A DNA stretch of 64,000 nt, from NCBI RefSeq assembly GCF_044324875.1, contig NZ_CP172185.1; one strand, 5' to 3'. Shown here piece by piece: positions 17,638 through 44,400 of this stretch; the first letter of the stretch is position 1, and every line of letters begins with the position of its first letter. The DNA is from Escherichia coli. GTDB lineage: Bacteria; Pseudomonadota; Gammaproteobacteria; Enterobacterales; Enterobacteriaceae. Position numbers and translations under genes: made by a program. The notes below the pieces were generated by a model that had not been told where the DNA came from, searched no databases, and was given only the letters and a program-made list of their open reading frames with translations.

Positions 17638-17740
17638 CGATGCCGGATGCGGCGCGAACGCCTTATCCGGCCTACAAAAGTTTGCAAATTCAATAAATTG
17701 CAGAATTCATGTAGGCCTGATAAGCGAAGCGCATCAGGCA
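17638..17740. repeat. BIME: two inverted REP palindromes between sbp and pfkA
   Basis: gatgccggatgcggcgcgaacgccttatccggcctac and gtaggcctgataagcgaagcgcatcaggca. Confidence 0.7.
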
Positions 17741-20639: not shown

Positions 20640-21338
20640 ATGAATAAAATCCTGTTAGTTGATGATGACCGAGAGCTGACTTCCCTATTAAAGGAGCTGC
20701 TCGAGATGGAAGGCTTCAACGTGATTGTTGCCCACGATGGGGAACAGGCGCTTGATCTTCTGGACGACAGCATTGATTTACTTTTGCTTGATGTAATGAT
20801 GCCGAAGAAAAATGGTATCGACACATTAAAAGCACTTCGCCAGACACACCAGACGCCTGTCATTATGTTGACGGCGCGCGGCAGTGAACTTGATCGCGTT
20901 CTCGGCCTTGAGCTGGGCGCAGATGACTATCTCCCGAAACCGTTTAATGATCGTGAGCTGGTGGCACGTATTCGCGCGATCCTGCGCCGTTCGCACTGGA
21001 GCGAGCAACAGCAAAACAACGACAACGGTTCACCGACACTGGAAGTTGATGCCTTAGTGCTGAATCCAGGCCGTCAGGAAGCCAGCTTCGACGGGCAAAC
21101 GCTGGAGTTAACCGGCACTGAGTTTACCCTGCTCTATTTGCTGGCACAGCATCTGGGTCAGGTGGTTTCCCGTGAACATTTAAGCCAGGAAGTGCTGGGC
21201 AAACGCCTGACGCCTTTCGACCGCGCTATCGATATGCACATTTCCAACCTGCGTCGTAAACTGCCGGATCGTAAAGATGGTCACCCGTGGTTTAAAACCT
21301 TGCGTGGTCGCGGCTATCTGATGGTTTCTGCTTCATGA
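20640..21338 (+). CDS. cpxR: response regulator CpxR (OmpR family)
   Basis: 232 aa, MNKILLVDDDRELTSLLKELL... Confidence 0.95.
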   Translation: MNKILLVDDDRELTSLLKELLEMEGFNVIVAHDGEQALDLLDDSIDLLLLDVMMPKKNGIDTLKALRQTHQTPVIMLTARGSELDRVLGLELGADDYLPKPFNDRELVARIRAILRRSHWSEQQQNNDNGSPTLEVDALVLNPGRQEASFDGQTLELTGTEFTLLYLLAQHLGQVVSREHLSQEVLGKRLTPFDRAIDMHISNLRRKLPDRKDGHPWFKTLRGRGYLMVSAS

Positions 21339-22708
21339 TAGGCAGCTTAACCGCGCGCATCTTCGCCATCTTCTGGCTGACGCTGGCGCTGGTGTTGATG
21401 TTGGTTTTGATGTTACCCAAGCTCGATTCACGCCAGATGACCGAGCTTCTGGATAGCGAACAGCGTCAGGGGCTGATGATTGAGCAGCATGTTGAAGCGG
21501 AGCTGGCGAACGATCCGCCCAATGATTTAATGTGGTGGCGGCGTCTGTTCCGGGCGATTGATAAGTGGGCACCGCCAGGACAGCGTTTGTTATTGGTGAC
21601 CACCGAAGGCCGCGTGATCGGCGCTGAACGCAGCGAAATGCAGATCATTCGTAACTTTATTGGTCAGGCCGATAACGCCGATCATCCGCAGAAGAAAAAG
21701 TATGGGCGCGTGGAACTGGTCGGTCCGTTCTCCGTGCGTGATGGCGAAGATAATTACCAACTTTATCTGATTCGTCCGGCCAGCAGTTCTCAATCCGATT
21801 TCATTAACTTACTGTTTGACCGCCCGCTATTACTGCTGATTGTCACCATGTTGGTCAGTACGCCGCTGCTGTTGTGGTTGGCCTGGAGTCTGGCAAAACC
21901 GGCGCGTAAGCTGAAAAACGCTGCCGATGAAGTTGCCCAGGGAAACTTACGCCAGCACCCGGAACTGGAAGCGGGGCCACAGGAATTCCTTGCCGCAGGT
22001 GCCAGTTTTAACCAGATGGTCACCGCGCTGGAGCGCATGATGACCTCTCAGCAGCGTCTGCTTTCTGATATCTCTCACGAGCTGCGCACCCCGCTGACGC
22101 GTCTGCAACTGGGTACGGCGTTACTGCGCCGTCGTAGTGGTGAAAGCAAGGAACTGGAGCGTATTGAAACCGAAGCGCAACGTCTGGACAGCATGATTAA
22201 CGACCTGTTGGTGATGTCACGTAATCAGCAGAAAAATGCGCTGGTAAGCGAGACATTGAAAGCTAACCAGTTGTGGGGCGAAGTGCTGGATAACGCGGCG
22301 TTCGAAGCCGAGCAGATGGGCAAGTCGTTGACGGTTAACTTCCCGCCTGGGCCGTGGCCGCTGTACGGCAACCCGAACGCCCTGGAGAGTGCGCTGGAAA
22401 ACATTGTTCGTAATGCCCTGCGTTATTCCCATACGAAGATTGAAGTGGGCTTTGCGGTAGATAAAGACGGTATCACCATTACGGTGGACGACGATGGTCC
22501 TGGCGTTAGCCCGGAAGATCGCGAACAGATTTTCCGTCCGTTCTATCGTACCGATGAAGCACGCGATCGTGAATCTGGCGGTACAGGTTTGGGGCTGGCA
22601 ATTGTTGAAACCGCCATTCAGCAGCATCGTGGCTGGGTTAAAGCGGAAGACAGCCCGCTGGGCGGTTTACGGCTGGTGATTTGGTTGCCGCTGTATAAGC
22701 GGAGTTAA
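21335..22708 (+). CDS. cpxA: sensor histidine kinase CpxA
   Basis: 457 aa, H-box SHELRTPLTRL; overlaps the cpxR stop. Confidence 0.95.
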   Translation: MIGSLTARIFAIFWLTLALVLMLVLMLPKLDSRQMTELLDSEQRQGLMIEQHVEAELANDPPNDLMWWRRLFRAIDKWAPPGQRLLLVTTEGRVIGAERSEMQIIRNFIGQADNADHPQKKKYGRVELVGPFSVRDGEDNYQLYLIRPASSSQSDFINLLFDRPLLLLIVTMLVSTPLLLWLAWSLAKPARKLKNAADEVAQGNLRQHPELEAGPQEFLAAGASFNQMVTALERMMTSQQRLLSDISHELRTPLTRLQLGTALLRRRSGESKELERIETEAQRLDSMINDLLVMSRNQQKNALVSETLKANQLWGEVLDNAAFEAEQMGKSLTVNFPPGPWPLYGNPNALESALENIVRNALRYSHTKIEVGFAVDKDGITITVDDDGPGVSPEDREQIFRPFYRTDEARDRESGGTGLGLAIVETAIQQHRGWVKAEDSPLGGLRLVIWLPLYKRS

Positions 22709-22778
22709 ACTCGGCGCAGAGCCGTCCCCTTCGGGGTGAAGGCAACAGGTCAGCACTGTGCGAACTGATACCCTCACC

Positions 22779-22894
22779 CCGGCCCTCTCCCTGAAAGGGC
22801 GAGGGGGAAAAACGTAGCCCTGTTCAGCAACGGAGCTGAGCACCGCTCCGGACAGTCCCCTCGCCCCTCTGGGGAGAGGGTTAGGGTGAGGGGA
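22779..22894. repeat. large imperfect inverted repeat (~40 bp arms) between cpxA and yiiM
   Basis: accctcaccccggccctctccctgaaagggcgagggg... and ...cccctcgcccctctggggagagggttagggtgaggg are near reverse complements. Confidence 0.5.
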
Positions 22895-22963
22895 AAAATT
22901 CAGCACAATGCAAACGGCACTGCTCTCACCGGAAACCATGCCAGATTTCGTATTAAGGCAGAC

Positions 22964-23638
22964 TTATTTTCCCCACAACCGGCGGGAAAAATCTTCGATC
23001 TTGCCGCTCAGTCGGCGCTTTTGCATCGTCCGCGTCCAGCTTTTCGATAACCCGGCAGCGGAGAGTAAACGGTGATACTGCTCGTCATCAAACGGCATAT
23101 GCCATGCGATGGCGGCAGCCTCCTGCACGGTCACATCACTGACACGGGAAACCAACTCCAGCGGAGCATCAGCAGATACCAACCCTGGCGCAATCACGCT
23201 ATACAACCACCCCACTTTACCCGTGTTTTGCATCAACTGCGCTATATCGCTGATATCAAAATGGTAATTGAGTTTATAGCAAGGTGAGCGTGGCTGGCTG
23301 ACCTGAATTAATGCCTCTCCCCAGCGGAAAATATCGCCAATATAAACATTACTTTCCGTCAGACCGTCGGTTGAGAGATTTTCGCCAAACGCAGGCGCAA
23401 CAAACAACTCCGCCTGTTCCGGAAATTCCCGCGCCCAGTAAAGATAATGCTCACGAGGATAATGACACAGCGCTCTGTCTGGCCCGCCGTGAACCTTTTT
23501 CTCCGCCTGCTCGTCACCTTCCAGCCCCAGCTCCGTCAGCATCAACTCACCATCAACCTGGATTTTGGCAATTGCGCTGGGTTTGCCTTCGGGATAAGCC
23601 TGAATCTTGCCTGTGTATACATCAACCGGATATCGCAT
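22964..23638 (-). CDS. yiiM: MOSC-domain protein YiiM
   Basis: ORF 22964-23668; MRYPVDVYTGKIQAYPEGKPSAIAK... from the internal ATG. Confidence 0.85.
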   Translation of the reverse strand: MRYPVDVYTGKIQAYPEGKPSAIAKIQVDGELMLTELGLEGDEQAEKKVHGGPDRALCHYPREHYLYWAREFPEQAELFVAPAFGENLSTDGLTESNVYIGDIFRWGEALIQVSQPRSPCYKLNYHFDISDIAQLMQNTGKVGWLYSVIAPGLVSADAPLELVSRVSDVTVQEAAAIAWHMPFDDEQYHRLLSAAGLSKSWTRTMQKRRLSGKIEDFSRRLWGK

Positions 23639-31737: not shown

Positions 31738-31743
31738 ACACTG

Positions 31744-31800
31744 CCGGATGCGGCGCGAGCGCCTTATTCGGCCGACAGATCGTGCATCCGACAACACCGA
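31744..31800. repeat. REP element between rhaA and rhaD
   Basis: gccggatgcggcgcgagcgccttattcggcc plus an adjacent partial palindrome. Confidence 0.6.
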
Positions 31801-41402: not shown

Positions 41403-44400
41403 ATGCAGGTCAGCAGAAGGCAGTTCTTTAAGATCTGCGCTGGCGGTATGGCAGGCACCACGGCGGCGGCACTGGGTTTTGCACCCAGCGTAGCACTCGC
41501 GGAAACCCGGCAGTATAAACTGCTGCGCACCCGCGAAACCCGTAATACCTGCACCTATTGTTCCGTAGGCTGTGGGCTGTTGATGTACAGCCTCGGTGAC
41601 GGAGCAAAAAACGCCAAAGCATCTATCTTCCATATCGAAGGCGATCCGGATCACCCGGTCAACCGCGGTGCACTTTGTCCGAAAGGCGCTGGCCTGGTGG
41701 ATTTCATCCACTCCGAAAGCCGTCTGAAGTTTCCGGAATACCGTGCGCCAGGTTCTGATAAATGGCAGCAAATCAGTTGGGAAGAGGCGTTTGATCGCAT
41801 CGCCAAACTGATGAAAGAAGACCGCGATGCTAACTACATTGCGCAAAACGCCGAAGGCGTGACAGTTAACCGCTGGCTCTCCACCGGGATGCTGTGTGCT
41901 TCCGCGTCGAGTAACGAAACCGGCTATTTAACGCAAAAATTCTCCCGCGCGCTGGGTATGCTCGCGGTCGACAACCAGGCGCGTGTCTGACACGGACCAA
42001 CGGTAGCAAGTCTTGCTCCAACATTTGGTCGCGGTGCGATGACCAACCACTGGGTCGACATCAAGAACGCCAACCTCGTCGTGGTGATGGGCGGTAACGC
42101 CGCTGAAGCTCACCCGGTCGGGTTCCGCTGGGCGATGGAAGCCAAAATTCACAACGGCGCGAAGCTGATTGTGATCGATCCTCGCTTTACGCGTACGGCG
42201 GCGGTGGCTGACTACTATGCCCCTATTCGTTCCGGTACTGACATTGCTTTCCTGTCAGGCGTATTGCTGTACCTGCTGAACAATGAAAAATTCAACCGCG
42301 AATACACCGAAGCCTATACCAACGCCAGCCTGATCGTGCGTGAGGATTACGGCTTTGAAGATGGCCTGTTCACCGGCTATGACGCGGAAAAACGCAAGTA
42401 CGATAAATCCTCCTGGACTTACGAACTGGACGAAAACGGCTTCGCCAAACGCGATACCACGCTGCAACATCCGCGCTGCGTGTGGAACTTGCTGAAACAG
42501 CACGTTTCCCGCTACACGCCAGATGTGGTTGAAAACATCTGTGGTACGCCAAAAGACGCGTTCCTGAAAGTCTGCGAATACATCGCAGAAACCAGTGCTC
42601 ACGATAAAACTGCCTCGTTCCTGTATGCCCTCGGCTGGACGCAACACTCCGTTGGTGCGCAAAACATTCGTACGATGGCGATGATCCAGCTGCTGCTCGG
42701 CAACATGGGGATGGCAGGCGGCGGCGTTAACGCCCTGCGCGGTCACTCCAATATTCAGGGGCTGACGGACCTGGGGCTGCTGTCGCAGAGCCTGCCAGGT
42801 TACATGACGCTGCCAAGCGAGAAGCAGACCGATCTGCAAACCTACCTTACCGCCAACACGCCAAAACCGCTGCTGGAAGGCCAGGTAAACTACTGGGGCA
42901 ACTACCCGAAATTCTTCGTCTCCATGATGAAGGCCTTCTTTGGTGATAAAGCGACGGCGGAAAATAGCTGGGGCTTTGACTGGTTGCCGAAGTGGGATAA
43001 AGGCTACGACGTCCTGCAATACTTCGAGATGATGAAAGAAGGCAAGGTCAATGGCTATATCTGCCAGGGCTTTAACCCTGTTGCCTCATTCCCGAACAAA
43101 AACAAAGTGATCAGTTGTCTGTCGAAACTGAAGTTCCTCGTCACTATCGACCCGCTGAACACTGAAACCTCTAACTTCTGGCAGAACCACGGTGAGCTGA
43201 ACGAAGTTGACTCGTCGAAGATCCAGACCGAAGTGTTCCGTCTGCCATCGACCTGCTTTGCGGAAGAGAACGGTTCTATCGTTAACTCCGGTCGCTGGTT
43301 GCAGTGGCACTGGAAAGGTGCGGACGCCCCAGGGATTGCGCTGACTGATGGCGAGATCCTCTCCGGTATCTTCCTGCGCTTGCGCAAGATGTATGCCGAA
43401 CAGGGTGGCGCGAACCCGGACCAGGTGCTGAACATGACCTGGAACTACGCTATCCCGCATGAGCCGAAGTCGGAAGAAGTAGCGATGGAGAGCAACGGTA
43501 AGGCGCTGGCCGATATTACCGATCCGGCAACCGGTGCGGTTATCGTCAAGAAAGGCCAACAACTTAGCTCGTTCGCCCAACTGCGCGATGACGGTACAAC
43601 CTCCTGTGGCTGCTGGATTTTCGCCGGTAGCTGGACGCCAGAAGGTAACCAGATGGCACGCCGTGATAACGCCGATCCGTCTGGCCTCGGTAACACGCTG
43701 GGCTGGGCATGGGCATGGCCGCTTAACCGCCGCATTCTGTATAACCGCGCCTCCGCAGATCCGCAGGGTAACCCGTGGGATCCGAAGCGTCAGTTGCTGA
43801 AATGGGACGGCACTAAGTGGACCGGCTGGGATATTCCGGACTACAGCGCAGCGCCTCCGGGTAGCGGCGTCGGGCCGTTTATCATGCAGCAGGAAGGCAT
43901 GGGGCGTCTGTTTGCCCTCGATAAGATGGCGGAAGGTCCGTTCCCGGAACACTACGAGCCGTTTGAAACGCCGCTGGGAACTAACCCGCTGCATCCAAAC
44001 GTTATCTCGAACCCGGCTGCACGTATCTTTAAAGACGACGCCGAAGCATTGGGTAAAGCCGATAAGTTCCCGTATGTCGGAACCACCTATCGTCTGACCG
44101 AGCACTTCCACTACTGGACCAAACACGCGCTGTTGAACGCGATTTTGCAACCAGAGCAGTTTGTGGAAATCGGGGAGTCGCTGGCGAATAAACTTGGCAT
44201 TGCCCAGGGCGATACCGTGAAAGTCTCCTCCAACCGTGGCTATATCAAAGCCAAAGCGGTGGTGACCAAACGTATTCGCACGCTGAAAGCGAACGGCAAA
44301 GATATCGATACCATCGGTATTCCGATTCACTGGGGCTATGAAGGTGTTGCGAAAAAAGGCTTTATTGCCAATACGTTAACGCCATTCGTTGGTGATGCGA

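Follow-up and report, generated by a model that had tools for sequence, protein, structure and literature searches.

A head-to-head BoxC/PIT/TMECO pair as the inverted repeat of a strain-variable spacer between cpxA and yiiM in Escherichia coli

What is the large inverted repeat that separates the convergent genes cpxA and yiiM, and does it serve either of them? The stretch of DNA analyzed here (64,000 nucleotides, hereafter the window) comes from the Escherichia coli chromosome, and the repeat lies in a 255-bp spacer (22709-22963) between the convergent stop codons of cpxA and yiiM, with kdgT as the next gene after yiiM. A preliminary description made from the letters alone had placed the repeat between these two genes, and this is borne out by the annotation of RefSeq records with a 100% identical sequence, e.g., NZ_CP042899.1 (strain CFSAN061763), where the PGAP annotation of this site consists of cpxA and yiiM alone. 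The coordinates of the features discussed below, the predicted helices and the folding energies are collected in Table 1.

Table 1. Features of the cpxA-yiiM region of the window, with predicted helices and folding energies (window positions)
Feature	Position	Strand	Size or energy	Remarks
cpxR	20640-21338	+		ORF list
cpxA	21335-22708	+		ORF list and RefSeq annotation
90-aa ORF, not a gene	22667-22939	-	90 aa	mechanical frame through both repeat arms, reaching 42 nt antisense into the cpxA 3' end
Allele-specific cpxA-yiiM spacer	22709-22963		255 bp	at least 80% covered in only 160 of 5426 complete E. coli genomes
Probable third-motif remnant (type A), tentative	22720-22745	+		GCCGTCCCCT^TCGGGGTGAAGGC; about 19 nt lost internally; MAFFT alignment to intact type A copies
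Linker	22746-22769	+		AACAGGTCAGCACTGTGCGAACTGAT; homologue of the 27-nt linker in the BoxC pair at K-12 gcvP-ygfF
BoxC/PIT/TMECO type B, one stem mismatch ('B mm'), left arm	22770-22805	-		CCCTCGCCC-TTTCA-GGGAGAGGG-CCG-GGGTGAGGG-T; exact pattern match
Spacer between the motifs	22806-22857		52 nt	C-rich blocks face each other (head-to-head); own small hairpin
BoxC/PIT/TMECO type A, one stem mismatch ('A mm'), right arm	22858-22893	+		CCCTCGCCC-CTCTG-GGGAGAGGG-TTA-GGGTGAGGG-G; exact pattern match
Tail after the type A motif	22894-22936	+		AAAAATTCAGCACAATGCAAACGG..., then, tentatively, what may be the eroded beginning of another reversed motif (CTGCTCTCACCGG against ACCCTCACCCCGG)
yiiM	22964-23638	-		stop codon at 22964; RefSeq annotation
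Outer helix 1	22771-22779 with 22884-22892		9 bp	RNA minimum-free-energy fold of 22765-22900
Outer helix 2	22781-22793 with 22870-22882		13 bp, 4 G-U	RNA minimum-free-energy fold of 22765-22900
Outer helix 3	22797-22807 with 22856-22866		11 bp, 1 G-U	RNA minimum-free-energy fold of 22765-22900
Central hairpin (within the spacer between the motifs)	22821-22828 with 22835-22842		8 bp	RNA minimum-free-energy fold of 22765-22900
RNA fold, plus strand	22765-22900	+	-89.6 kcal/mol	z = -8.8; shuffle mean -52.0; 0/200 shuffles as good
RNA fold, minus strand, whole spacer	22709-22963	-	-136.1 kcal/mol	z = -8.4
Single-stranded DNA fold, either strand	22765-22900	either	about -41 kcal/mol	z about -6.2

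The inverted repeat and the motifs that form it

The left arm of the repeat (22770-22807) reads ACCCTCACCCCGGCCCTCTCCCTGAAAGGGCGAGGGGG and the right arm (22856-22893) reads TCCCCTCGCCCCTCTGGGGAGAGGGTTAGGGTGAGGGG. The two arms are near reverse complements, as had been proposed: once the right arm is reverse-complemented, 29 of 40 aligned positions agree with the left arm, and 33 bp of pairing connect 22771-22807 with 22856-22892. A large imperfect inverted repeat is indeed present, but its start had been put at 22779, whereas the left arm actually begins at 22770/22771, i.e., 8-9 nt earlier. The long stem-loop that the preliminary description considered possible is also recovered upon folding, for RNA of both strands and for single-stranded DNA (Table 1), and pairing reaches outward to about 22751-22914 when the flanks are added. 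The inverted repeat is real and far beyond what would be expected by chance.

Both arms belong to a repeat family that is known under three names. The BoxC repeat was first described in the 1990s, was rediscovered by Hoyne, Maher and coworkers as the 'potential intrastrand triplex' (PIT), and was renamed TMECO by Holder et al. (2015, NAR 43:10126, PMC4666352). The earlier sources, cited here after that paper, are the survey of Bachellier et al. (1999), Hoyne et al. (2000, J Mol Biol 302:797), and Hoyne and Maher (2002, J Mol Biol 318:373). The equation of BoxC, PIT and TMECO rests on Holder et al. (PMC4666352), the original BoxC consensus being 56 bp long. The TMECO pattern published by these authors, 5'-CCCTCNCCC N3-6 GGGNGAGGG N3 GGGNGAGGG [G/T/C/-]-3', has exactly two exact matches in the window, at 22771-22805 on the minus strand and at 22858-22892 on the plus strand, against 0.00 expected in shuffled windows. 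Letter for letter, the minus-strand copy is K-12 MG1655 TMECO #10, and the plus-strand copy is K-12 TMECO #9, #16, #19 and #22 (Table 1 in PMC4666352). The second loop is TTA in the plus-strand copy (type A) and CCG in the minus-strand copy (type B). Inverted close pairs are found at five loci of K-12 and always combine type A with type B (PMC4666352), and the composition of the pair in the window fits this rule.

Considering these findings, we conclude that the cpxA-yiiM inverted repeat is a head-to-head BoxC/PIT/TMECO pair, made of a minus-strand type B and a plus-strand type A copy, and hence an already known repeat in an already known arrangement. Since it consists of two adjacent 36-nt BoxC units in opposite orientation, the large inverted repeat is a by-product and not a structure of its own kind. 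The pair has in common with the published elements the motif pattern, copies identical to those of K-12, an intergenic site, the inverted combination of A and B, and a strain-variable locus. It is arranged head-to-head around a 52-nt spacer, whereas of the five pairs in K-12 the one at lldD-trmL alone is head-to-head and the other four are tail-to-tail, with linkers of 16-27 nt; nothing in the comparison is different in kind. The family is dispersed in E. coli, with matches in 5157 of 5426 genomes and a median of five megablast places per genome. Nearly all of these places (21,923 of 21,930) are on chromosomes, and the copies examined are intergenic. The search for further copies that had been suggested for this repeat returned BoxC copies elsewhere in E. 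coli genomes, and the two observations named beforehand as speaking against the repeat, the lack of a stable structure and the lack of other copies, have both turned out otherwise.

Each arm is built of three 9-nt blocks, one C-rich and two G-rich. By inspection, eight of the nine positions of the C block CCCTCGCCC pair with the first G block GGGAGAGGG, the remaining one being a G-A mismatch (hence the 'mm' class), and an antiparallel alignment of the second G block GGGTGAGGG with GGGAGAGGG gives seven G·G, one A·A and one T·A triads. Judged by their letters, both motifs follow the block rules of a class II purine-motif triplex. The isolated strand has been shown by CD and NMR to form a stable purine-motif intrastrand triplex in vitro, with a duplex formed once the complement is present, and in vivo DMS footprinting detected no protection at TMECO (PMC4666352). 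These CD and NMR data cover oligonucleotides of type A mm and type B mm, of which the type A oligonucleotide, as deduced from the control sequence, differs from the type A copy of the window by one loop base (PMC4666352). The G-rich half of the type A motif, 22872-22893 (GGGGAGAGGGTTAGGGTGAGGGG), also fits the canonical four-tract G-quadruplex pattern, with a TTAGGG inside it. Holder et al. (PMC4666352) weighed a quadruplex for the isolated DNA strand and ruled it out by NMR.

BoxC-like sequence is also found outside the two arms. Positions 22734-22815 of the window share 86.7% identity with the K-12-type gcvP-ygfF pair, the 27-nt linker of that pair included, and 22746-22769 is on this account a BoxC linker or tail. 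In alignments, sequence similar to this linker also follows the G-rich end of other BoxC copies, and within the spacer the linker is a direct repeat of 22901-22917 at a spacing of 150 nt. Next to it, 22734-22745 is homologous to the third G block at gcvP-ygfF, and the CCCC/GGGG hairpin that is left in 22720-22745 is weak (-6 kcal/mol) and not significant. Holder et al. (PMC4666352) report similar cases, in which a palindromic site has been partly deleted and a small hairpin is left. Past the 36-nt motif, alignments of BoxC copies contain a conserved tail, AAMAGGYCRGCAC....

The segments 22881-22936 and 22731-22783 form a diverged direct repeat (37/57 positions), with a score of 14, compared with a mean of -9.5 and a maximum of 6 for shuffles. 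From this arrangement the spacer may tentatively be read as two tandem units of A, tail and B, the outer motifs of which would have decayed, so that the head-to-head repeat would represent their junction. When tandem duplication was tested segment by segment, only the middle segment (third G block, tail, next motif start) was supported. The reading stays tentative because the outer segments, which were no better than shuffles, lack significant similarity, and a global self-alignment of the spacer is confounded by the internal likeness of the A and B motifs. The best explanation is that the 255-bp spacer is made largely of BoxC-derived sequence.

Alleles of the spacer and its homologue at rhaA-rhaD

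With a single exception, the 5426 complete E. coli genomes match a query made of the flanks, and the sequence found between the flanks is variable. In most E. coli, K-12 among them, two REP elements in a 105-bp spacer take the place of the BoxC pair, and some genomes have a third allele, a 170-bp spacer with an extra REP. In strain DP033 (610-779), the 170-bp REP spacer with the extra REP-like unit is accompanied by a changed C-terminal codon context of cpxA. No TMECO motif is present at cpxA-yiiM in K-12, and the part of the supplementary text of Holder et al. (PMC4666352) that was accessible contains, among the genes sought, only gcvP, with no mention of cpxA, yiiM, rhaA or rhaD. In alignments, homology between the alleles ends a few bases past the cpxA stop codon and restarts at the yiiM stop codon. 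This break at both stop codons indicates that the whole spacer was exchanged and not interrupted by an insertion.

The BoxC-bearing allele is 100% identical among at least 60 RefSeq genomes. It is lineage-restricted, being found in about 3% of complete E. coli genomes, and is an ordinary strain-variable feature. Among 100,044 species representatives, exact patterns for the spacer with the motif start and for a 23-mer of the unique right flank gave no match, and neither a donor species nor an ancestral state of the spacer was identified there; exact matching of this type would miss diverged relatives.

The spacer between the two motifs has one relative within the species. Of 5426 E. coli genomes, 943 contain its 48-nt core (22809-22856), mostly once and rarely twice, and the core occurs at only two loci, cpxA-yiiM and rhaA-rhaD. 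The 160 core matches with at least 95% identity represent the cpxA-yiiM locus, and about 783 have 80-95% identity, every one examined being the rhaA-rhaD spacer. The rhaA-rhaD homologue (e.g., in E24377A, TC24 and 2015C-3121) is about 150 bp long, lies 9 kb away in the same orientation, and shares 90% identity across 140 bp, with the spacer included. It has the same order of B (-), spacer and A (+) as the cpxA-yiiM pair, from which it differs in its flanks and in its frequency (about 780 genomes vs 160). Both loci are occupied in only 5 genomes, e.g., strain N3 (motifs at 11963-12084 and 20996-21117), while the carriers of a single site number about 783 for rhaA-rhaD and 155 for cpxA-yiiM. In the window the rhaA-rhaD site is empty (31783-31795), with a REP at 31743-31772 in that spacer; 17 unrelated bases stand there, compared with about 192 bp in carriers, and no target duplication was found. 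It is conceivable, but on balance rather doubtful, that the composite of about 150 bp (type B, 52-nt spacer, type A, and tails) is a discrete unit that was copied in the same orientation between rhaA-rhaD and cpxA-yiiM.

The head-to-head architecture recurs elsewhere, and the cpxA-yiiM spacer does not. Related BoxC copies are also present at gcvP-ygfF, rhaA-rhaD and lldD-trmL, and head-to-head A/B pairs with unrelated spacers were found at K-12 lldD-trmL, on one Klebsiella pneumoniae plasmid and on two E. coli plasmids. The pair of K. pneumoniae plasmid pVA126-339, in the cysP-dyp spacer, and those of the E. coli plasmids pMTY18781-3 and pE16EC0562-4, near flgN, are of the B/A type and of similar overall length. 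BoxC pairs on large plasmids are slightly at odds with the published absence of plasmid association. In total, 139 plasmid records match the BoxC pair, of which 44 are from Sinorhizobium, 38 from Azospirillum and 10 from Rhizobium, which suggests that alphaproteobacterial replicons may hold similar G/C-rich three-block repeats; several 'plasmid' matches of 1-5 Mb look like mislabelled chromosomes. In the phage collection, the BoxC pair was matched only by two 'UNVERIFIED' Campylobacter phage records and one short fragment. The records MG065686.1 ('UNVERIFIED Campylobacter phage A18a', about 1485-1665) and MG065691.1 contain the reverse complement of the K-12 lldD-trmL BoxC pair including its unique flanks, and the BoxC sequence in them is likely due to contamination with, or misassembly of, E. 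coli DNA.

Weighing a function for the pair

An intrinsic (Rho-independent) terminator was ruled out, as no T-run stands behind the hairpin: the downstream sequence reads AAAAATT for the plus strand and ATCAGTTCG for the minus strand. A terminator scan found no plus-strand hairpin with a T-run in the spacer and, on the minus strand, only a weak 7-bp candidate (22923-22905) outside the repeat. No sigma-70-like promoter was found between 22500 and 23200. At the gathering threshold, an Rfam search of the whole window returned four unrelated families, none of them at the repeat. One of these matches, to the ES036/CssrF sRNA (17677-17718, 48 bits), lies directly downstream of a REP element at 17642-17671; the other matches are SECIS_3 (41985-42043), the ClpQY promoter (2531-2588) and STnc370 (63066-63134, minus strand). 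A permissive Rfam search of 22300-23300 gave only sub-threshold chance matches, i.e., eukaryotic miRNA precursors and an antizyme frameshift element (21 bits vs a threshold of 40).

The earlier statement that the repeat is neither a canonical REP nor an ERIC element was confirmed. REP elements, as defined by a pattern of the type GCCGGATGCGGCG...GCCTTATCCGGC, are matched in the window only at 17642 and 31743, and not at the repeat, and the ERIC2 primer sequence, taken to represent the conserved ERIC core, had no match in the window when up to 3 mismatches were allowed. In favor of a divergent REP/BIME or ERIC element, the BoxC pair has the character of a short, GC-rich, palindromic, intergenic enterobacterial repeat, and REP elements do fill this spacer in most E. 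coli. However, REP and BoxC sequences are unrelated, a REP is a single hairpin as opposed to a three-block motif, none is present in the window allele, and the REP-bearing allele of the spacer cannot be aligned with that of the window, which leaves practically no room for this interpretation. A role as a coding or regulatory region is hardly more credible. The minus strand holds an uninterrupted frame of 90 codons and the region is strongly structured, which could speak for a small protein or a small regulatory RNA, but this frame crosses the low-complexity repeat arms and runs antisense into cpxA, a Pfam search up to E = 1 assigns it to no family, and PGAP annotates no such feature in the 60 listed RefSeq genomes whose spacer is identical. 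Besides, its sequence is missing from about 97% of E. coli genomes, where it cannot exist because another spacer is present. The absence of a promoter-like site in 22500-23200, and a best permissive Rfam match to an unrelated eukaryotic element far below its threshold, also stand against an RNA, so that a product of either kind is extremely improbable; the ORF had already been regarded as almost certainly an artefact of the repeat, and we agree.

The size of the motif-spacer-motif unit (about 126-150 bp, total below 200 bp), its terminal inverted repeats of about 36 nt with the ends CCCTCACCCC, its presence/absence polymorphism and the 90%-identical copy at a second locus, rhaA-rhaD, all resemble a MITE moved by a transposase. 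Against such an origin, neither cpxA-yiiM nor rhaA-rhaD offers a clean empty site or a target-site duplication, the alternative alleles being unrelated sequence. The composite with this spacer occupies only two chromosomal loci among 5426 genomes, BoxC pairs at other loci carry unrelated spacers, the unit is essentially absent from phages, and the exact-pattern scans of species representatives returned nothing. We therefore consider a MITE very unlikely. Somewhat more weight, although still little, can be given to the view that the long hairpin is a functional 3'-end element of the convergent cpxRA and yiiM transcripts, either by terminating transcription in both directions or by obstructing 3'-to-5' exonucleases, in place of the REP pair, which may have such a role in other strains. 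The hairpin lies exactly between the two convergent stop codons and is extremely stable on both strands, and REP elements, which are known stabilisers of mRNA 3' ends, occupy the same place in the alternative allele. On the other hand, it lacks a T-run on either strand, and BoxC copies favor neither a particular distance from genes nor a particular orientation to them (PMC4666352). According to the account of Hoyne and Maher (2002) given in PMC4666352, these elements have neither promoter nor terminator activity and do not affect RNA polymerase. A dedicated 3'-end function is for these reasons unlikely.

What the evidence most strongly favors is that the BoxC pair is structure-prone repeated DNA of the BoxC family, very probably without a dedicated function for cpxA or yiiM. 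When single-stranded during replication or repair, the pair may adopt a hairpin, a cruciform or a transient triplex. Such structures could lead to polymerase stalling, slippage, deletion and templated replacement, and slippage or replacement might in turn produce both the turnover of alleles and the eroded remnants of flanking motifs. The main biological consequence of the pair would then be the local turnover of intergenic sequence. A transcript of either gene that carries the pair in its 3' UTR would contain a long hairpin, whose influence on the stability of the 3' end would be incidental at most. The elements have been described as blocking DNA polymerase in vitro and as having no in vivo phenotype (Hoyne and Maher 2002, as reported in PMC4666352), and variability between strains was markedly higher around TMECO loci than at control intergenic sites (PMC4666352).

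The locus shows local sequence instability, which is the only documented correlate of the family; for the mechanism suggested above, the support in the literature is correlative. Turnover is evidenced by the three alleles of the spacer in E. coli and by the replacement at rhaA-rhaD, which is also messy (17 bp vs about 192 bp). The identity of the BoxC-bearing allele among its carriers, i.e., its stability within the lineage, argues against hypermutability, and since the allele is invariant there, any instability acts over long timescales.

Meaning for annotation and for the BoxC family

The identification matters little beyond correct annotation, which should name the repeat as a BoxC/PIT/TMECO pair and drop the 90-aa ORF. 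The locus is a clean example of the published link between BoxC motifs and strain-to-strain intergenic turnover, and also of the exchange of a complete spacer between convergent genes from one repeat family to an unrelated one (REP and BoxC) with both stop codons untouched. The BoxC-bearing allele could serve as a lineage marker, and the distribution of the composite over two loci can be used to study how BoxC clusters are copied. If this copying is a templated repair or a template switch seeded by the BoxC structure, cpxA-yiiM and rhaA-rhaD would provide a handle on the spread of BoxC clusters.
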